Part shown: positions 59,032-63,861 of the stretch, in pieces
Numbering within the stretch: position 1 is the stretch's first letter
How the letters are laid out: each line of letters begins with the position of its first letter
DNA from: an uncultured Candidatus Saccharibacteria bacterium
Lineage (GTDB): Bacteria > Patescibacteriota > Minisyncoccia > Phycocordibacterales > UBA918
Direction: 5' to 3'
NCBI GenBank assembly: GCA_964608605.1
Contig: CAZSOS010000001.1
Location: 207,452 to 271,451, forward strand
Length of the DNA stretch: 64,000 bases
Made by a program: the position numbers and the translations under genes
Notes under the pieces: model-generated
Databases searched by the model: none
What the model saw: only the letters and a program-made list of their open reading frames with translations
Told to the model about the DNA's origin: nothing

Positions 59032-59874
59032 ATGCTACGGATAATGTTCCTTAACACCTGGGGCGGGGAATTGTGGGAGGAACTGCGCTGGTACGTCACC
59101 ACGCAAGTACAAAAATTCGACGTGATTTGCCTCACCGAGGTGCATCATTTGCCCGGTGCCAAAGACGCGTTCATAACCCCAACGCTTCCCGGTAGCCGTA
59201 AGAGCGACATATTCGCATGTCAGTTCGAAGCTCTTTGCAAACTGCTGCCCAAGCATGTCGGCTACTACACCGCGCATGGCGAATTCATGTTGCATGATCT
59301 GGAGCGTCATGAGTCTCCGATAAAATATGGCAACGCCATGTTCATCTCGCGCCATTTGTCCCACTTCATCAGCACCGGCATGGTGTTTGGCCAATACAAT
59401 CGGTCCTCGGCCGGCTGGCCGGCGCCTAGGTCGATACAAGGAGTGACCTTCAGGAAAGGAAACGACGCGTACGCGGTGGCGCACTTCCACGGTGTCTGGA
59501 CCGGAGGCCCAAAAGAAGACACCGAGGACCGTTATCGCCAGTCGATAAATGCCGACGCCTTCGTCACCGACCTTGCTCTCAAGTCGCGGAGCGTGTTCAA
59601 TATCCAACCAAAAGTGATCATCGGAGGCGACTTTAACCTCACTTCGAAAACCACTTCGCTCCGCATGTTGGCCAAAAGCAAGGCATTCGACCAGCGAGGC
59701 CGGATACTGAACCACGAGTTCGGCGTCACGGACACCAGGACCAGCCACTATGCTAAAGAGGTCCGGGAAGCCGACTTCGCTCTGGTGTCTCCAAGCGTCA
59801 AAGTTTTTTCCTTCACGGCACCGGCCGAACCGGAGATCTCCGATCATCGGCCGCTCATTCTCGAGTGCGAGTGA
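59032..59874 (+). CDS. endonuclease/exonuclease/phosphatase (EEP) family protein
   Basis: N-terminal LNTWGG, GGDFNL and C-terminal SDHRPL motifs. Confidence 0.75.
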   Translation: MLRIMFLNTWGGELWEELRWYVTTQVQKFDVICLTEVHHLPGAKDAFITPTLPGSRKSDIFACQFEALCKLLPKHVGYYTAHGEFMLHDLERHESPIKYGNAMFISRHLSHFISTGMVFGQYNRSSAGWPAPRSIQGVTFRKGNDAYAVAHFHGVWTGGPKEDTEDRYRQSINADAFVTDLALKSRSVFNIQPKVIIGGDFNLTSKTTSLRMLAKSKAFDQRGRILNHEFGVTDTRTSHYAKEVREADFALVSPSVKVFSFTAPAEPEISDHRPLILECE

Positions 59875-59886
59875 TCAGACGCCAAC

Positions 59887-59920
59887 TGGCGGCCCACCTG
59901 GGCCGCCAGTTTTCTTCTTC
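59887..59920 (+). terminator. intrinsic terminator
   Basis: CTGGCGGCCCACCTGGGCCGCCAG followed by TTTTCTTCTTC. Confidence 0.7.
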
Positions 59921-59961
59921 TCAGTTCAGGATTTATCTGCTATATTTGAGCGCATTCTATC

Positions 59962-60032
59962 GGGCCCATAGTATAGCGGTAGAACGCCTCCATGGCATGG
60001 AGGAGGTCGGGGTTCGACTCCCCGTGGGTCCA
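59962..60032 (+). tRNA. tRNA-Ala (anticodon GGC)
   Basis: Hand-folded. Acceptor GGGCCCA/TGGGTCC with G3:U70. Anticodon loop ATGGCAT. T-arm GGGGTTCGACTCCCC. Discriminator A. No encoded CCA. The D-stem has one A-A mismatch. Confidence 0.7.
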
Positions 60033-60050
60033 CGCGGTTATGGTATTTCG

Positions 60051-60070
60051 GTGGTAGTGTTCGCGATTCG
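60051..60070 (+). repeat. 20-bp exact duplicate of the tRNA-Pro D-loop/anticodon-stem segment (GTGGTAGTGTTCGCGATTCG)
   Basis: Identical to 60101-60120 inside tRNA-Pro. Lies 17 nt upstream of the intact gene. Confidence 0.7.
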
Positions 60071-60086
60071 AGATAAAACGCATTGT

Positions 60087-60157
60087 CGGGCCGTAGCATA
60101 GTGGTAGTGTTCGCGATTCGGGTTCGCGAGGTCCGAGTTCGATTCTCGGCGGCCCGA
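60087..60157 (+). tRNA. tRNA-Pro (anticodon CGG)
   Basis: Hand-folded. C1:G72 acceptor CGGGCCG/CGGCCCG with A73, as is typical of bacterial tRNA-Pro. Anticodon stem-loop CGCGA-TTCGGGT-TCGCG. T-arm CCGAG-TTCGATT-CTCGG. Confidence 0.75.
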
Positions 60158-60209
60158 CAATGTGTTGTATCGGAAGTCCCGGGGACTTCCGTGGCTACAA
60201 CGAAGGTGT

Positions 60210-60237
60210 GGTCCGAGTTCGATTCTCAGTGGGCCAG
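60210..60237 (+). pseudogene. tRNA 3'-half fragment (T-arm plus partial acceptor) duplicated from tRNA-Pro
   Basis: GGTCCGAGTTCGATTCTC is identical to 60130-60147. No matching 5' acceptor strand is present. Preceded by the CGGAAGTCCC/GGGACTTCCG hairpin. Confidence 0.6.
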
Positions 60238-60239
60238 CA

Positions 60240-60557
60240 TCAGATTTTGATGAGTCCTTCATGTATTTCCATATGGCAATTAGCACACACGAGGATACAC
60301 TTCTCGACCTCAGCCTTTGTTTTTTCCCAAGAACGAGTCAAACCTCTGGACGATAAACCGAAATCTTTTTTGCTAGGGTCGGTGTGGTGAAATGATAAAG
60401 CACGTTTACATTTCGCATAACCACACATTCGGCATTTACCACCTCCGTACTCAATAGCCATATCCTTGAGTTTCTTTCGCCTCTTTATAACGGCCGCTTT
60501 TATATATTCGGCCCTGTCCGCATAAGTTCTTTTTTCAATTCTTCGTGGCATATACAC
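60240..60557 (-). CDS. HNH endonuclease (105 aa, free-standing)
   Basis: GTG start. CRMCGY...HH-DP...CANCHMEIH HNH/zinc-finger motif. Wedged between tRNA fragments and the intron-bearing tRNA-Asn. Confidence 0.8.
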   Translation of the reverse strand: MYMPRRIEKRTYADRAEYIKAAVIKRRKKLKDMAIEYGGGKCRMCGYAKCKRALSFHHTDPSKKDFGLSSRGLTRSWEKTKAEVEKCILVCANCHMEIHEGLIKI

Positions 60558-60657
60558 ATGTATTCTACCACAATAATCATGCTTGAATATTGAAAGAATG
60601 TGGATTTTCTGTAGAATAGACGCAACTTGGTCGATATCGCCGATCCAAGTAGTACAT

Positions 60658-61007
60658 TCCCCTGTAGCTCAGCGGTAGAGCAGTCGACTGTATGTATTGC
60701 AGCTTCCTAGGGAAACCTAGGTCGAAAAGAAGGTGAATTGTCCGAAGCGCGCAAGCGCAACGGATCCGGAACCGCAAGGTTCTAGGACTGGAAACCCAAA
60801 CGTGTAGTCGTGGGCAATCAGCAGCCAAGTCCTCAGAGTAATCTAAGGAAAGGTTCAGAGACTATCCCTAACGGGAGTAGCCGAGCAAGAAATTGCTCCA
60901 GGCGAAGCGCCTTCCACCCCTTTCGGGTGATGATATAGTCCACGCCCTTTGGAAACATCGGGATCAGTGTAATCGATTGGTCGCAGGTTCGAATCCTGCC
61001 GGGGGAG
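60658..61007 (+). tRNA. tRNA-Asn (anticodon GUU) interrupted by a group I intron between positions 35 and 36
   Basis: The 5' exon TCCCCTGTAGCTCAGCGGTAGAGCAGTCGACTGT and the 3' exon TAATCGATTGGTCGCAGGTTCGAATCCTGCCGGGGGAG splice to a canonical Asn tRNA (U1:A72, G73, loop CUGUUAA) closely matching E. coli tRNA-Asn. Confidence 0.8.
60692..60969 (+). ncRNA. group I self-splicing intron (278 nt, no ORF)
   Basis: R element GTTCAGAGACTA at 60853-60864 and S-like GATATAGTCC at 60933-60942, giving P7 GACUA/UAGUC. The 5' exon ends in U and pairs with IGS GCAG through a U-G wobble. The intron ends in G. Confidence 0.75.
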
Positions 61008-61008
61008 C

Positions 61009-61045
61009 AAATGAAAAAGCACCGTTTTGGTGCTTTTTCATTTGC
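61009..61045 (+). terminator. intrinsic terminator
   Basis: AAATGAAAAAGCACC-GTTTT-GGTGCTTTTTCATTT. Confidence 0.75.
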
Positions 61046-61192
61046 GAGCCCGGAGAAAGTGCCAGTGGCACTTTCGTCAGGATTCGAAGACCTTGCCAGA
61101 TATTTTGTGACGCAAAGAAACAAAATATCGACAAGGTGTACCGCCCATGTAATGGGAGAAATTCCTGCCGGGGAGCTGAGGTATAATTTTAT

Positions 61193-61699
61193 ATGTTAGG
61201 TTTTGTATCTATGGAATTTTTAATACTTTCCCTCGTAATACTAGGAGTAGTGGTACTGGCAGTAGTTACATTAAAGCTCTTTTCAATATCAAAGACCGAC
61301 CAACCACTCCCTTACCGAGCTAAACAATATTTCTTTTCTCGCTCGGAGCAAGAGTTTCTTAGAATTTTAAACGAATCACTCGATAGGCAACGCTTTGTGA
61401 TTTTTCCAAAAGTGAGACTTGCTGACTTTATAGAAGTGACTATTAGAGGACGTGAGTACCAAGGTTGGTTGAGTAAAATTAAATCAAAGCATGTCGACTT
61501 TCTAATTTGGGATGTTAAAAATCACAAAATAGCCTTAGCAGTTGAGTTAGACGGTAAATCCCACAACATTGAACCTATGCAAACAAGAGATGAGTTTGTT
61601 AACCGGCTATATGACAAGGTGGAAATAAGATTAGTAAGAGTCAAAGTAGGTAGCAATTTCTTGACAGAAGCAAAAATTATATCTGAATCTTTAAGTTAA
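61193..61699 (+). CDS. DUF2726-like (restriction-endonuclease-fold) membrane-anchored protein
   Basis: AT-rich. N-terminal TM, then FPKVRLADFI...HVDFLIWDV...LAVELDGKSH, which resembles the DUF2726/NERD-like nuclease fold. Confidence 0.6.
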   Translation: MLGFVSMEFLILSLVILGVVVLAVVTLKLFSISKTDQPLPYRAKQYFFSRSEQEFLRILNESLDRQRFVIFPKVRLADFIEVTIRGREYQGWLSKIKSKHVDFLIWDVKNHKIALAVELDGKSHNIEPMQTRDEFVNRLYDKVEIRLVRVKVGSNFLTEAKIISESLS

Positions 61700-61741
61700 T
61701 TAGACTGAGGCGTATACTAAGCACAATAAAACTTCTGGCTG

Positions 61742-62791
61742 ATGAAAAAGGAATTCCCTGAATTTTATAGTTTAAGTAAAGACGAGATAACCGCACTATG
61801 GGAGGGGTGCATATTCGCTTTTGATGCAAATGTCCTTCTTAATCTCTACAGATATTCTCTAGACACTAGCGATAATCTAATCTCAATCTTAAAAAATTTC
61901 TCCGACCGCATTTGGATGCCACACCAGTTCGCTCTTGAGTACCAAAGGAATCGAATGGTGGTGATAGAAGGTCAGCGGGTTAAGTACATGGGGAGTATAA
62001 AGAATATTCTAGGTGAACTGGAGGTCGTAGAGGAACTCCTAGGTAACTACTACGGGAAAATGCCTTTTGACATCAAGAAGATAAAGAATGATTTGTTGAA
62101 GTCTCAGGAAGAGTACCCTGGATGCACATCAGAGGACAAAATGCGGGAGGAAATCGACGCACTTTTCGAGAATAAGGTAGGTAGTCCTTTCGACGAAAAA
62201 AGAATGCTCGCAGTGATAGACGAGGGCAAAGAAAGATACCAAAAAGAAATGCCGCCGGGTTACTGCGACGCGTTAGAAAAAGATAAGAATGATCCCACTA
62301 AGACTCGGAAATATGGAGACCTTATTGGGTGGCTTCAAATGATCGAGAAAGCTAAAACCGAGAAGAAACCCCTTGTATTTATCACCAGTGAGCGAAAGGA
62401 AGACTGGTGGCAAATCGTAAAGGGAAAAACTGTTGGTCCTAGGCACGAATTATTGAAAGAGTTTCAGAAAGAAACTGGAGAAGCATTTCATATGTATGAT
62501 ATGAAACGCTTTCTTGACTATGCGAAAGAAAAACACACAGTCAAAAAGAAAACTATTGATGAAGTTATAAAAATTGATGAAGTGTATAATAACAGCGTCG
62601 CAAGTGAACTTGGGGTAGTTGTTGGTGGTGATACTCCCACTTTGTCAGACTATCTAGTGAACCCTGTAGGTTGGCCAATTACGGAAGCATCATCACAAAC
62701 TTCATCTGTGGAAAAGGAGTCCGCTTGGATTATTGTGCCAGAAAATGATGACGGCACAGGAAATCTGGCAACAGGTGACAGGGAACAATGA
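61742..62791 (+). CDS. PIN-like domain protein (DUF4935-type) with uncharacterised C-terminal half
   Basis: AT-rich. N-terminal IFAFDANVLLNLY (PIN strand 1 Asp), YGDLIGW and ITSERKEDWW acidic positions. 349 aa. Confidence 0.6.
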   Translation: MKKEFPEFYSLSKDEITALWEGCIFAFDANVLLNLYRYSLDTSDNLISILKNFSDRIWMPHQFALEYQRNRMVVIEGQRVKYMGSIKNILGELEVVEELLGNYYGKMPFDIKKIKNDLLKSQEEYPGCTSEDKMREEIDALFENKVGSPFDEKRMLAVIDEGKERYQKEMPPGYCDALEKDKNDPTKTRKYGDLIGWLQMIEKAKTEKKPLVFITSERKEDWWQIVKGKTVGPRHELLKEFQKETGEAFHMYDMKRFLDYAKEKHTVKKKTIDEVIKIDEVYNNSVASELGVVVGGDTPTLSDYLVNPVGWPITEASSQTSSVEKESAWIIVPENDDGTGNLATGDREQ

Positions 62792-62795
62792 ATCT

Positions 62796-63074
62796 ATGAA
62801 GACTTATTTGATAACATACGACTTAATTAAGCCGGAAACTAGCGCGGATTACGTAAAGCTTTTCGCTAATATAAAATCACATCTTGGCTGGGCCAAGCCC
62901 ATGAGATCAGTCTGGTTGATAAAAACTAACAGGTCTAGGGATGAAATCATGAAATTGTTGAGATCAGCAGGTGACAGCAATGATAAATTTTTAGTGATGG
63001 AAGTTACAAGGGAATGGATAGCTTTTAACCTTCCAGCAAGTGTCATTACATGGATGAAGGATGAGATTAAATAA
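62796..63074 (+). CDS. small alpha/beta protein (93 aa), translationally coupled partner of the PIN-like gene
   Basis: Its ATG overlaps the upstream TGA (ATGA). MKTYLITYDL...DYVKLFANIKSHLGWAKPMRSVWLIK resembles the beta1-alpha1-beta2 pattern of Cas2/VapD-like folds, but there is no CRISPR context. Confidence 0.5.
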   Translation: MKTYLITYDLIKPETSADYVKLFANIKSHLGWAKPMRSVWLIKTNRSRDEIMKLLRSAGDSNDKFLVMEVTREWIAFNLPASVITWMKDEIK

Positions 63075-63202
63075 TTTATTAAGATTTTAGTTGTTTATAA
63101 AAGTTCTAACGTCCTCCCAAGCGGTGAGCCAATAAAATCACCTTATTTTACAAGGTGATTTTTTGATATCCAAATAGGGTTCAGAACTGATATAATAAAA
63201 AT

Positions 63203-63598
63203 ATGAAATTAGATGCAATAAGCGTAACCAGCACAGACTTAGAAAAATCAGCCAAGTTCTATTCCTTACTAGGTTTTACTTTCCCTACATTTGGGAAGGA
63301 TGAAAAACATATAGAACCCCAAACAAAAAATGGCGAGGTGAGACTTATGATAGATACTGCTGATTTGATTGAAAGTATCACTGGCTCAAAACCAGTGCCT
63401 CCAAATCATTCTTCGTTTGCAATACTGTGTGAGCAACCTTCAAAAGTAGACGAGGTCTGTATAAAAATAAAAAATGAAGGGTTTGTTGTCATAAAAGAAC
63501 CTTGGGATGCATTTTGGGGACAAAGGTATGCAATTGTTCAAGACCCAGATGGTTATATGATTGATTTATTTGCACCGCTAGAAAATAGTACCACTTAG
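63203..63598 (+). CDS. VOC/glyoxalase-bleomycin resistance family protein
   Basis: 131 aa with the glyoxalase-like beta-alpha-beta-beta-beta module pattern. AT-rich. Confidence 0.7.
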   Translation: MKLDAISVTSTDLEKSAKFYSLLGFTFPTFGKDEKHIEPQTKNGEVRLMIDTADLIESITGSKPVPPNHSSFAILCEQPSKVDEVCIKIKNEGFVVIKEPWDAFWGQRYAIVQDPDGYMIDLFAPLENSTT

Positions 63599-63861
63599 TT
63601 CTGAAGAGCAATCTCCGAAAACATTTCAGAAATCTTAGAGTACTCAATATCTCTTTTAATTTGAACCCAATTGAGAGTTCTGAATGCGTCCACTAGAGGG
63701 AGCTAGTGAAAAAGACCCTTACAAAGGTCTTTTTCGTTTGCTCCGTGGGAGAGAATCCTCTCGGAAAGTTTTCATACGTGTTACCAAACCGCCGATATTT
63801 CCCCAAGAAATACTTACCGAAGCTGAATCCTTGCCACCCTGAAGTGTTAAAATAATTAACA

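Follow-up and report, generated by a model that had tools for sequence, protein, structure and literature searches.

Organisation of the tRNA-Ala, tRNA-Pro and tRNA-Asn cluster

The window analysed here, a 64-kb stretch of a chromosome from an uncultured bacterium, contains a cluster of tRNA-Ala, tRNA-Pro and tRNA-Asn genes in which the intact tRNA-Pro is flanked by partial tRNA sequences and a free-standing HNH endonuclease gene precedes an intron-containing tRNA-Asn. A sequence-only reading of the window had described a 20-bp copy of part of the tRNA-Pro, a copy of its T-arm, a hairpin, the HNH gene and the intron-bearing tRNA-Asn, and a recheck of the 64-kb window found each of these elements in place. 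The features of the locus are as follows.

59918 to 59946, + strand: promoter-like site TTCTCA-17-TATATT, TG extended (consensus scan, 9/12 matches)
59962 to 60033, + strand: tRNA-Ala(GGC), first gene in the Ala-Pro-Asn cluster (ARAGORN; Rfam tRNA, 57.4 bits)
60051 to 60070, + strand: probable 5′ remnant of an older (outer) tRNA-Pro, tRNA positions 15-34, an exact 20-nt copy of 60101-60120
60072 to 60086, + strand: left arm of an inverted repeat extending the acceptor stem of the inner tRNA-Pro
60087 to 60158, + strand: intact inner tRNA-Pro(CGG), the 'W-type' unit (ARAGORN; Rfam tRNA, 60.6 bits)
60157 to 60171, + strand: right arm of the inverted repeat (ACAATGTGTTGTATC), ending at the base of the trailer hairpin
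60171 to 60191, + strand: trailer hairpin CGGAAGTCCC-G-GGGACTTCCG, with perfect 10-bp arms (60171-60180 and 60182-60191)
60197 to 60209, + strand: mini-hairpin ACAAC-GAA-GGTGT, read from the sequence
60210 to 60239, + strand: probable 3′ remnant of the outer tRNA gene, from the variable loop through the T-arm to a degenerate acceptor strand
60240 to 60557, − strand: free-standing HNH homing-endonuclease gene, 105 aa (open reading frame; GTG start aligned with the ATG of relatives)
60590 to 60617, + strand: tRNA-Asn promoter-like site TTGAAA-16-TAGAAT (10/12 matches)
60658 to 60691, + strand: tRNA-Asn(GUU) exon 1, positions 1-35 (BLAST to the intronless L029 gene; regex mapping)
60692 to 60969, + strand: group I intron of 278 nt with no ORF, inserted at anticodon-loop position 35/36 (RF00028, 53 bits, E=8e-12)
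60970 to 61009, + strand: tRNA-Asn exon 2, positions 36-73 plus CA (exon proper to 61007)

The promoter-like site at 59918-59946 precedes tRNA-Ala and tRNA-Pro and lies downstream of the terminator-like hairpin of the preceding gene (59884-59911). An independent assembly (L001, Logan ERR2586217) has the identical arrangement at every base, and an assembly artefact was ruled out because the same structures recur in independent assemblies. An exact-protein look-up of the window HNH (both possible starts) and of P0008 matched no contig.

Searching the 64-kb window for the sequence of the 5′ remnant (GTGGTAGTGTTCGCGATTCG) gave exactly two sites, 60051-60070 and 60101-60120, with zero matches expected by chance even at 3 mismatches. 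The remnant stops in the anticodon loop (ATTCG|), and 16 nt separate its end from the tRNA-Pro; the outer 5′ halves in the related loci L045, L046, L002 and L038 stop at ATTTGGG| or ATTCGGG|. On the other side, GGTCCGAGTTCGATTCTC is present at 60130-60147 and 60210-60227 (expected count 0.13; two matches in 0/100 shuffles). Alignment of the 3′ remnant with 60130-60155 showed 18/18 exact matches and homology extending to 26 nt at 88% identity, beyond which the remnant continues as a degenerate acceptor strand to 60239. It matches the 3′ end of the window tRNA-Pro at 25/30 positions and that of a chimeric tRNA-Ala in L043 at 27/30 (one gap), its acceptor part being equally close to the tRNA-Ala/Pro chimera of relatives and to tRNA-Pro. 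The HNH stop codon directly adjoins the 3′ remnant, and in every clade member it lies 0-4 nt from the 3′ end of a tRNA or tRNA fragment. Remains of other tRNA-Pro isoacceptors were ruled out as the source of the fragments, as the 5′ fragment has a CGG-type anticodon stem and the break lies inside the loop. Small 3′-end copies also occur in these genomes at other tRNAs without any HNH (L030, L008 and L036), and some 3′ fragments may for this reason have a different origin.

The left arm of the inverted repeat begins one base past the left junction, and 60072-60086 pairs with 60157-60171 through 10 contiguous pairs, one mismatch and 4 more pairs (15-nt repeat); RNA folding gave a continuous extended acceptor stem with a z-score of -4.6. 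Acceptor-extending repeats were also found in L045 (15 bp), in the D-type tRNA-Pro units of L002 and L038 (16-19 bp) and at the tRNA-Asn of L029 (14 bp), and the inverted repeats run from the left junction to the hairpin base. Among 43 distinct ARAGORN-detected tRNA genes, extensions of >2 bp were present in five (four nested tRNA-Pro units and the L029 tRNA-Asn), and repeats of at least 10 bp were likewise confined to the nested units and the L029 tRNA-Asn. The intron-containing tRNA-Asn genes are missed by ARAGORN; only that of L031 reaches 10 bp, and an extended acceptor stem was seen in only L029, L031 and L010 among 31 tRNA-Asn genes. The scans of 43 genes and 31 tRNA-Asn genes thus ruled out extended acceptor stems as a general tRNA feature in these genomes.

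The trailer hairpin has a homologue in L045 and L002 (CAGAAGTCC-GGG-GGACTTCTG), in which pairing is preserved through a G-C to A-T double change. The mini-hairpin forms the right end of the inserted block, immediately 5′ of the displaced 3′ part, and has counterparts at the equivalent place in L045 and L037 (CTCC-TAA-GGAG) and in D-type units (CTCT-GAA-AGAG). The possibility that the tRNA-Pro trailer (ATGTGTTG..., CTCCTAAGGAG) is a relic of intron P1/P2 or of the 3′ end of the ORF was rejected, because its best local alignments to 29 distinct introns were equalled by 7-54% of shuffles.

The HNH endonuclease and the tRNA-Asn group I intron

The start of the HNH gene lies 100 nt from the tRNA-Asn, and the tRNA-Asn promoter-like site forms the right boundary of the HNH cassette; this promoter-like sequence is kept in L031 and in the HNH-less L029, where it directly follows the tRNA-Pro. 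The window HNH matched the PHROG HNH families phrog_2255 (E=1e-27) and phrog_3106 (E=1e-24) and scored 18.6 bits against Pfam HNH (PF01844), under the 21.4 cut-off, with a precomputed PF01844 match available for some homologues. A total of 1545 homologues were retrieved, the named ones being from Paceibacteria/Nomurabacteria. Residues C42, C45, H57, H58, C91, N93, C94, H95 and H99 are invariant in 35 sequences, and the His...Asn...His motif and two CxxC pairs are conserved across in-intron and free-standing forms. An AF2 model (pLDDT 82) showed a strand-strand-helix arrangement at residues 54-58, 87-91 and 92-99, and the top Foldseek PDB matches were HNH nucleases (Cap5, Cas9 HNH, T4 endo VII and Gme HNH), all weak at E>0.1. 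A PDB sequence search with the HNH returned no meaningful match, and PADLOC returned no match for the HNH or the downstream island proteins. Values of dN/dS of 0.03-0.08 indicate that the HNH is under strong purifying selection. Its GC content is approximately 42%, compared with approximately 56% in the flanks, and its identity to relatives is 82-85%, compared with 78-83% for the housekeeping UDG; since these identities are similar, the HNH cassette is old in the clade rather than a recent invader.

Joining the tRNA-Asn exons in silico produced a tRNA-Asn(GTT) recognised by ARAGORN. Position 35/36 is a known tRNA-Asn intron site in Patescibacteria, other members of which self-splice in vitro, and four HNH-encoding introns at this site have been published (PMC13011429). 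Among the loci compared, the HNH ORF follows tRNA-Asn exon 1 and precedes the intron core in L006, L008, L010-L012, L014, L016-L022 and L031, and the homologous introns containing the HNH ORF (loci within L006-L022, and L031) are 510-600 nt long. A free-standing HNH is found in divergent orientation in the window, L002, L003, L004, L007 and L037-L051, and in convergent orientation in L005; in the window clade it is inverted and located approximately 100 nt upstream of an ORF-less intron. In other lineages, a free-standing HNH adjoins the intron-containing tRNA-Asn and tRNA-Pro is not nearby. The in-intron homologues are 60-71% identical to the window HNH and end in ITQLP, which is encoded by intron P1′/P2 sequence. 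A similar C-terminal tail is retained by the free-standing proteins of L005 and L007, and among the 120 closest homologues (protein clusters) the intron-encoded tail is present in 42 and absent in 77. The HNH is a member of the endonuclease family of the tRNA-Asn(GUU) 35/36 group I intron and has probably moved out of the intron in this clade; the tree and the C-terminal tails suggest an exit from the intron rather than a step towards entry. The homing-type character proposed for the HNH in the sequence-only reading is borne out by its family and its context, with homologues inside the tRNA-Asn group I intron in many Patescibacteria.

The intron is present at all HNH-bearing loci of the clade and absent from the single HNH-less allele; because the loci were mostly fetched through the HNH itself and only one empty allele was found, this co-occurrence is subject to ascertainment bias. 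The region probably marks one edge of a homing-endonuclease locus on the chromosome of a member of the Paceibacteria (candidate phyla radiation). The HNH ORF would have left the intron and now stands in reverse orientation, with the 3′ end of the tRNA-Pro locus on one side and the tRNA-Asn promoter on the other. Collaborative and trans homing suggest by analogy that the enzyme most likely targets tRNA-Asn DNA without the intron, which it would nick or cut at the intron insertion site or close to it; repair from an allele with both HNH and intron would copy the two together.

Variation among related loci and the proposed origin of the nested tRNA-Pro

Approximately 25 related loci were compared, a check that the sequence-only reading had suggested, and the fragments varied strongly. 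Close relatives carry from none to four tRNA-Pro fragments, with gene loss and chimeric tRNAs also seen, and hence the fragments are not an invariant feature of the locus, an outcome that would have counted against the sequence-only reading had it been found. One Ala-Pro-Asn allele (L029), with tRNA-Ala, tRNA-Pro and an intron-less tRNA-Asn 94%, 97% and 98% identical to the window, lacks both HNH and intron and nowhere repeats tRNA-Pro positions 15-76; its tRNA-Pro abuts the tRNA-Asn promoter and it retains a 9-nt match to the 5′ end of tRNA-Pro. Through this one allele the HNH and the intron show presence/absence polymorphism at a syntenic site. In L031 the HNH is inside the intron, a tRNA-Pro is adjacent and there are no tRNA-Pro fragments. 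The tRNA-Ala(GGC) is 86-94% conserved among relatives, with a T-arm of the tRNA-Pro type in L043, L044 and L037. A 232-244-aa ORF upstream of tRNA-Ala in L002, L040 and L031 was considered as a LAGLIDADG endonuclease, a guess left unsupported by Pfam and PHROGs, which gave only weak HTH matches.

The relatives have zero, one (as in the window) or two levels of nesting. Each nesting block of approximately 140 bp consists of a short inverted repeat, a complete tRNA-Pro and a hairpin trailer, and interrupts the preceding copy, with tRNA positions ~35-37 on its left and ~41-44 on its right. In L045, L047 and L048, the order is outer 5′ half, inverted repeat, intact W gene, trailer, outer 3′ part and HNH, and the intact gene is identical to the window tRNA-Pro at 72/72 positions. 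This W-type gene is split by a further unit in L046, L049 and L038; in L046 and L049, which carry the identical HNH protein, the split is at 37/41 and is caused by a 141-nt block holding a different tRNA-Pro (14 differences). The outer halves in L002 are mutually coherent (acceptor CGGGCTG/CAGCCCG, anticodon stem TACGA/..GTA), and the C/C′ halves in L038 are of the W type. The outermost 3′ part is absent in L038 and L039, only a 3′ fragment is present in L037, and L043, L044, L050 and L051 have no tRNA-Pro. Secondary deletions between direct repeats, T-arm exchange with tRNA-Ala and complete loss of tRNA-Pro were thus all seen in relatives, and tRNA-Pro copies ending at the anticodon loop were found only in genomes with a free-standing HNH beside tRNA-Pro.

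The fragments had been described as copies of the present gene. A better description is that they are what remains of the two ends of an older gene, which a block bearing the present gene has split. The explanation that we consider probable is that the fragments are the two ends of an older tRNA-Pro split by a replacement-bearing block, next to an HNH that escaped from the tRNA-Asn intron, and that the arrangement arose by break repair. The interruption of the older tRNA-Pro would lie in the anticodon loop, where positions 35-37 form the left junction and 41-44 the right one. It would be due to a block of ~140 bp comprising the replacement tRNA-Pro(CGG), a 13-19-nt leader that is an inverted copy of the block's own trailer, a 9-10-bp hairpin and the mini-hairpin. 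Breaks would recur in or next to the anticodon-loop DNA of tRNA-Pro and be repaired from diverged alleles, with homology offered by the tRNA genes only. A strand invading out of register would append a 3′ part together with its trailer. Where the 5′ side did not anneal, the new strand would fold back on the palindrome of the acceptor stem and be end-joined, so that a 5′ half would come to precede the inverted leader. The breaks may be due either to relaxed-specificity cutting by the HNH, as for T4 SegB on tRNA genes, or to resection and recombination tracts from an HNH cut in the tRNA-Asn ~120 bp away.

The link between the HNH and the tRNA-Pro breaks is circumstantial. Cleavage of tRNA-Pro by the HNH, as raised in the sequence-only reading, is unsupported by the comparison: the conserved partner of the HNH is tRNA-Asn, an HNH is present beside tRNA-Pro without fragments in L031, and in other lineages the free-standing HNH has no nearby tRNA-Pro. 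The fragments would be scars left at the anticodon loop of tRNA-Pro by repeated breakage and repair or by site-specific insertion, which partly supports the sequence-only reading. All breakpoints cluster at the anticodon loop, in line with site-specific breakage, and the variability of the fragments is consistent with repeated cleavage and repair, which had been proposed together with integration and excision; the latter, in its classical form, is unlikely. Against break repair, two nesting events share the same junctions and build and are more regular than error-prone repair predicts.

A dedicated small mobile cassette is a rival reading that we regard as unlikely. A unit of ~140 bp would insert site-specifically into the anticodon-loop DNA of the resident tRNA-Pro(CGG), with damage to the host offset by the unit's own working tRNA-Pro copy, and would be moved in trans by a recombinase or nuclease, possibly the HNH, possibly encoded elsewhere in the genome. 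Two separate insertions have the same target position and architecture with sequences ~20% different, the D-type block is cleanly present or absent between genomes with an identical HNH protein, and the inverted repeat starts exactly at the left junction and is of a kind missing from ordinary tRNA genes. However, no transposase or recombinase gene was found at the locus, the right repeat is internal, being followed by the hairpin and mini-hairpin, no target-site duplication was seen, and L037 has a D-type trailer without the left repeat. In the sequences compared the units were found at this one locus only, and there was no match in the viral contigs or phage records searched, which speaks against a phage or plasmid origin. 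The transposon or MITE features of repeats at both termini, target duplication and copies at several loci were thus not seen. It is similarly doubtful that the block is a selfish unit homing into tRNA-Pro(CGG) anticodon-loop DNA, destroying and replacing the gene, and driven by an HNH re-targeted from tRNA-Asn. Such 'gene-replacement homing' would be a third way, beside introns and att-reconstituting integrases, of making insertion into an essential tRNA gene harmless, and the units would stack like nested dolls because each insertion recreates its target.

Ordinary local duplication, by replication slippage or unequal crossing-over of neighbouring tRNA genes followed by decay, with the HNH as a bystander, is improbable. 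Direct repeats so close together recombine readily, the repeat-to-repeat deletions and the tRNA-Ala/tRNA-Pro T-arm exchange are of this kind, and over 20 and 18 nt the window fragments do not differ from the intact gene (100% identity). However, the D and W genes have 14 differences and different leaders and trailers, so the inner and outer copies are better seen as imports or old alleles than as fresh local copies. The copies are nested, with 5′ halves running outside-in and 3′ parts inside-out, and not tandem, every junction is at the anticodon loop, and the restriction of loop-ending copies to genomes with a free-standing HNH beside tRNA-Pro is at odds with a bystander role.

Least probable of all are leftover att sites of integrase-driven elements in tRNA-Pro that were later excised or deleted: partial 3′ tRNA copies typically mark integrated elements (PMC9897764), small att-like 3′-end repeats occur at other tRNAs, including the window tRNA-Asn (61163-61176) and L030, and a low-GC island follows the tRNA-Asn, but there is no integrase among the ORFs around the locus, complete and partial copies are only 46-56 nt apart, the standard reaction leaves one complete and one 3′-partial copy and cannot yield the 5′ halves found upstream (PMC9897764), and the inverted leader is unexplained.

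Significance and comparison with known systems

A 2026 survey found most Patescibacteria tRNA introns to be without homing endonuclease genes and concluded on this basis that their horizontal spread is limited; the survey looked inside introns only. A substantial branch of the HNH family lies immediately outside tRNA-Asn introns that have no ORF, as judged from the 77 of 120 closest protein clusters without the tail, and intron mobility in these reduced genomes may therefore be underestimated. The loci form a natural series in which one and the same endonuclease occurs both within and outside one and the same intron, as the collaborative-homing model needs, and do so in cellular genomes rather than phages. 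Under the break-repair explanation, the tRNA-Pro locus would preserve, in unusually legible form, a history of repeated breaks and their repair in an uncultured bacterium, including a tRNA gene nested up to two deep, fold-back-like inverted leaders, chimeric tRNAs and gene loss; a dedicated mechanism, if true, would be a new strategy for invading essential genes. The tRNA halves and intron-split tRNAs are overlooked or mis-called by standard tRNA finders.

The known systems closest to this locus are collaborative or trans homing and T4 SegB. Collaborative or trans homing is represented by F-CphI with the psbA intron in cyanophage S-PM2 and by MobE with the nrdB intron in T4/Aeh1 (PMC2988022, PMC3984707). 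The present locus resembles these in having a free-standing endonuclease gene within approximately 100 nt of a gene whose group I intron is ORF-less, and, subject to the ascertainment bias noted above, in the joint presence or absence of endonuclease and intron in the alleles compared. Those systems are phage systems; the present one is on the chromosome of a cellular organism (Patescibacteria), and the gene interrupted codes for a tRNA. Members of its endonuclease family are also found inside the same intron in sister lineages, and the target of the HNH is predicted by analogy. The introns of Nakagawa et al. 2026 (PMC13011429) share phylum, tRNA, insertion site and endonuclease family with the present one; here, in contrast, the 278-nt intron is ORF-less and the endonuclease is located outside it on the other strand.

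T4 SegB is a free-standing endonuclease that prefers a tRNA-Asn site and also cuts many tRNA genes via a T-arm motif (PMC2330249). Its gene, like the HNH gene, lies between tRNA genes, and it provides a precedent for collateral breaks in neighbouring tRNA genes. It differs in being a phage GIY-YIG enzyme that cuts near tRNA 3′ ends, and nested or split tRNA genes are not reported for it (PMC2330249). The complete tRNA gene with a partial 3′ copy in direct orientation is reminiscent of att duplications (PMC9897764), from which the locus differs in the spacing of the copies (tens of nt, not kilobases), the 5′ halves, the nested order and the lack of an integrase.

Fold-back on an inverted repeat gives an inverted copy of neighbouring sequence. 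The leader here, an inverted copy of adjacent sequence, is like the product of such fold-back template switching. In the illegitimate, one-sided double-strand break repair that accompanies T4 intron homing, limited homology leads to junctions at non-homologous sites (PMC2988022). Self-nesting of a tRNA gene appears to be undescribed in the literature, and neither illegitimate nor fold-back repair is known to have been described as nesting a working gene within the halves of its predecessor, an outcome that is seen twice here.

The tRNA cluster of the window and its HNH gene

The arrangement proposed by the sequence-only reading, in which a tRNA-Pro flanked by fragments of itself is followed by a hairpin, an HNH open reading frame (ORF) and an intron-containing tRNA-Asn, was confirmed by ARAGORN and Rfam, repeat counts, the ORF itself and an independent short-read assembly (L001) with identical sequence over this region.

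Features of the tRNA cluster in the window
59962-60033: tRNA-Ala(GGC), detected by ARAGORN and Rfam
60051-60070: 5′ fragment GTGGTAGTGTTCGCGATTCG, tRNA positions 15-34, with a second copy within the intact tRNA-Pro
60087-60158: intact tRNA-Pro(CGG), detected by ARAGORN and Rfam
60171-60191: perfect 10-bp hairpin
60210-60227: 3′ fragment GGTCCGAGTTCGATTCTC, second copy of the variable loop plus T-arm of the intact tRNA-Pro
60240-60557, minus strand: HNH ORF, 105 aa
From 100 nt past the HNH ORF start: tRNA-Asn(GUU), with a 278-nt group I intron after anticodon position 35

Zero matches to GTGGTAGTGTTCGCGATTCG are expected in the 64-kb window with up to three mismatches allowed, and the 3′ fragment continues as a degenerate acceptor strand to 60239, one base short of the HNH stop codon. 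The fragments match the gene at 20/20 and 18/18 positions, which implies that they were either homogenised by gene conversion or formed separately and recently. The tRNA-Asn intron matches RF00028 (53 bits), and the exons, once joined, are identified as tRNA-Asn; ARAGORN alone overlooks the intron-split gene.

The HNH protein matched phage HNH families (E=1e-27), with a Pfam HNH score slightly under threshold. It has 1545 homologues (named sources Paceibacteria, Nomurabacteria and Parcubacteria). A Cys4 and His/Asn motif is invariant in the 35 sequences compared, and the best fold matches of a confident AF2 model (pLDDT 82) are all HNH nucleases, though weak. The free-standing gene is under strong constraint, with a dN/dS of 0.03-0.08 (dS being saturated for the window versus the L002 group). 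Its divergence (82-85% aa) is comparable to that of the neighbouring UDG (78-83%), which makes the gene a long-standing inhabitant of the window's clade.

Genomic context was the decisive evidence on what the HNH gene is. Of 27 genome loci fetched through the HNH protein, nearly all the close ones have a group I intron beside or around the gene. When tRNA-Asn exons were mapped (handles beginning with L stand for the loci compared with the window), the ORF was found in one of the following arrangements.

Arrangements of the HNH ORF
In-intron, after exon 1 and ahead of the ribozyme core; introns of 510-600 nt (L006, L008, L010-L022, L031)
Outside the intron, which is ORF-less and 230-330 nt long; free-standing, divergent and ~100 nt upstream of it (window, L002-L004, L007, L037-L051)
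Convergent, stop codon 3 nt from the tRNA-Asn 3′ end (L005)

In-intron HNH proteins terminate in ITQLP, coded by the intron's own P1′/P2 sequence. A similar tail persists in L005 and L007, which are free-standing but fall among in-intron sequences in a neighbour-joining tree, in which the window's clade, L003 and L004 form one free-standing branch; these tails and tree positions point to the ORF having left the intron more than once. The intron-type tail is missing in 77 of the 120 closest protein clusters. In lineages beyond the window's clade, what follows the free-standing gene is ordinary protein genes and no tRNA, so its constant partner is tRNA-Asn, not tRNA-Pro. Exactly this kind of 35/36 intron in Patescibacteria tRNA-Asn was described in 2026, with self-splicing demonstrated in vitro and four introns reported to encode HNH proteins, the search for which was confined to the inside of long introns (PMC13011429). 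The HNH gene of the window is a free-standing relative of an intron endonuclease, located beside its ORF-less intron at a tRNA in a cellular genome, and as such a variant on a known theme.

Nested tRNA-Pro genes in related genomes

Comparison across related genomes, the check proposed with the sequence-only reading, revealed that the fragments and the HNH gene vary, with none, one or two levels of nesting and with loss of tRNA-Pro. An empty allele (L029) was found by searching metagenome contigs with the tRNA-Pro 5′ half. It carries tRNA-Ala (94%), tRNA-Pro (97%) and an intron-less tRNA-Asn (98%) in the same order, with no HNH gene and no copy of tRNA-Pro positions 15-76 beyond the gene itself. 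In L029 the conserved tRNA-Asn promoter (TTGAAA-16-TAGAAT; window 60590-60617) directly trails tRNA-Pro, 3 nt after it, which sets the limits of the cassette in the window at ~350 bp of lower GC, from the tRNA 3′ end to the promoter. L031 has Ala-Pro-Asn with the HNH gene within the intron, and the fragments are absent.

About 20 syntenic loci were read from tRNA-Ala to the HNH stop codon. In the nested loci a complete tRNA-Pro block, of the window's type (W) or a diverged type (D), sits between the anticodon-loop-split halves of an older, outer tRNA-Pro.

Arrangements between tRNA-Ala and the HNH gene
L037: intact tRNA-Pro at the native upstream junction, 56-nt trailer, 3′ fragment (positions 41-76), HNH
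L045, L047, L048: outer 5′ half ending ...GATTTGGG, 13-nt leader, intact W gene identical to the window's, 46-nt trailer, outer 3′ part from position 41, HNH
L046, L049: W gene split at 37/41 by a 141-nt block; HNH protein identical to that of L045
L002, L033, L040, L041: two-level nest as in L046 and L049
L038, L039: two-level nest without the outermost 3′ part
L043, L044, L050, L051: tRNA-Pro absent; HNH stop abuts tRNA-Ala

The 46-nt trailer consists of an inverted repeat arm, a 9-bp hairpin and a mini-hairpin (CTCC-TAA-GGAG), and the window has the same build as L045, with a more eroded outer gene. The 141-nt block holds a D tRNA-Pro (14 differences), which has a separate inverted leader of 16-19 nt and a trailer that is homologous but has diverged. 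The missing 3′ part in L038 and L039 would fit a deletion between repeated ...CCCGACA ends. The outer halves of L002 agree in acceptor (CGGGCTG/CAGCCCG) and anticodon stem (TACGA/..GTA), and the middle halves of L038 are both W type; since the halves match each other, they are pieces of once-whole genes. The left junction is always found at positions 35-37, the right one always at 41-44. From literature searches, the nested structure appears undescribed.

Further tRNA-derived sequences were seen at these loci. The tRNA-Ala(GGC) of L043 (3320-3391), L044 (1352-1423) and L037 (3570-3641) has the tRNA-Pro T-arm (G[GT]CCGAGTTCGATTCTCGG) on its own acceptor stem, a sign that gene conversion has occurred between the two neighbouring genes; in L043 and L044 the swap coincides with tRNA-Pro loss. 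The window's 3′ fragment has drifted: it shares 27/30 positions with the end of the chimeric tRNA-Ala in L043 and 25/30 with the window's own tRNA-Pro 3′ end. The outermost tRNA-Pro 5′ half has a 74-nt insertion in its D-loop in L002 (5651-5724), L038, L046 and L049, with a remnant in L045; the insert (TGCGAAGCATACAACC...CTTGGTTGT) contains a hairpin and CTCGCTCG repeats and was found nowhere else. The Ala-Pro spacer opens with CGGGCTGTA, the first 9 nt of tRNA-Pro, followed by a conserved hairpin (GGGCTGTAAGC...GCTTGCATCCC; L029 70-155, L002 5746-5818, L037, L045); this start is kept even in the HNH-less L029, and so could be a 5′ remnant of yet greater age or else a signal for processing; it is deleted in the window.

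Each inner unit lies between inverted repeats that add 10-19 bp to its acceptor stem (60072-60086 with 60157-60171 in the window; predicted RNA fold z=-4.6). Among the 43 distinct ARAGORN-detected tRNA genes of the loci, extensions of >2 bp occur only in nested tRNA-Pro units and the L029 tRNA-Asn (14 bp). Of the tRNA-Asn genes with an intron, all of them missed by ARAGORN, just those of L031 (10 bp) and L010 (5 bp) have such an extension. The repeat begins at the left junction or ≤3 nt away and ends at the trailer hairpin base (within 4 nt in D units); on the right side the inserted DNA extends ~40 nt past it. Such asymmetry is expected if a new strand, folding back on the acceptor-stem palindrome, used its own trailer as template up to the hairpin. 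Alternatively, the inverted leader may stem from selection on precursor-RNA pairing between leader and trailer, or from a dedicated element; the shape is not that of a transposon with terminal repeats, the right repeat being internal. The tRNA-Asn genes with acceptor-extending repeats (L029 295-395, intron-less; L031 1660-2350 and L010 4930-5575, HNH inside the intron) contrast with 28 other tRNA-Asn examined, which have none; the L029 and L031 repeats show compensatory changes (ctaagc/gcttag versus gcaagc/gcttgc).

For the nests as a whole, a dedicated self-nesting tRNA-Pro cassette is unlikely. Plain local duplication does not fit, being at odds with the heterologous inner copies and the nested order. 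The sequence-only reading had offered cleavage and repair, possibly driven by a homing-type HNH endonuclease, or integration and excision; the HNH family and contexts, the empty allele and the variability support it in part, whereas integrase att remnants do not fit the presence of 5′ halves, the spacing or the absence of an integrase at the locus. Small att-like 3′-end repeats are nonetheless present, both beside other tRNAs of these genomes and, in the window, downstream of tRNA-Asn.

Variable surroundings of the cluster

Downstream of tRNA-Asn, window 60999-61176 contains a terminator-like hairpin (60999-61053), the T-arm and acceptor of tRNA-Asn in a degenerate, inverted copy interrupted by a hairpin (~61040-61088, where CGTCAGGATTCGAA reverse-complements 60988-61001) and a direct copy of the tRNA-Asn 3′ end (61163-61173, TCCTGCCGGGG). 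Comparable copies occur in L002/L040, L044, L047 and L008. A low-GC island follows (61190-63770, 34-45%) encoding DUF2726, PIN_8, phrog_1090 and glyoxalase-family proteins, for which PADLOC gave no hits; its far end (63706-63760) repeats the terminator hairpin and inverted Asn-like 3′ end of 61009-61060. Genes downstream of tRNA-Asn differ among L037, L038, L040, L043 and L045, making this DNA a site of variation or integration. L030 (2900-3430, minus strand) is an unrelated Patescibacteria contig with no HNH gene; in it, tRNA-Pro(CGG) is followed by two tandem ~176-nt units, each ending in an exact 18-21-nt tRNA 3′-end copy and holding an inverted T-arm copy. They resemble small att-flanked elements, non-autonomous and piled up at the 3′ end of a tRNA.

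Adjoining tRNA-Ala on its upstream side, an endonuclease/exonuclease/phosphatase-family protein (window 59032-59874) is only ~40% identical to its counterparts in relatives, compared with ~80% for UDG and 64-74% for GH18; its gene is missing from L037, L043 and L051 and is thus another variable gene here. In L040 (3925-4623, minus strand) and L031 (673-1407) it is replaced by a 232-244-aa ORF that accompanies a different tRNA-Ala allele and, apart from a weak helix-turn-helix at its N terminus, matches no family; profile searches gave no support for the suspicion that it is a second homing endonuclease.

A proposed mechanism and known systems

The HNH enzyme would target intron-less tRNA-Asn at the insertion site, such that gene and intron are copied together by collaborative or trans homing (PMC2988022, PMC3984707). 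The anticodon-loop DNA of tRNA-Pro would be repeatedly broken, by relaxed cutting by HNH or by resection starting at tRNA-Asn ~120 bp away, and mended from diverged alleles with homology in the tRNA genes only. Out-of-register invasion into a pre-existing 3′ fragment could add a 3′ part plus trailer, and failure of the 5′ side to anneal, with fold-back and end joining, could leave a 5′ half plus inverted leader. A nick would steer repair into error-prone break-induced replication. Against the simple story, the enzyme is present without scars in L031, the close likeness of the two nesting events is suspicious, the cassette is old in the clade and the window's fragments match the intact gene perfectly.

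Nicking rather than cutting is common among HNH intron endonucleases (PMC3984707), and one-sided illegitimate repair is documented in T4 intron homing (PMC2988022). T4 SegB prefers a tRNA-Asn gene, yet cuts many tRNA genes via a T-arm motif (PMC2330249).
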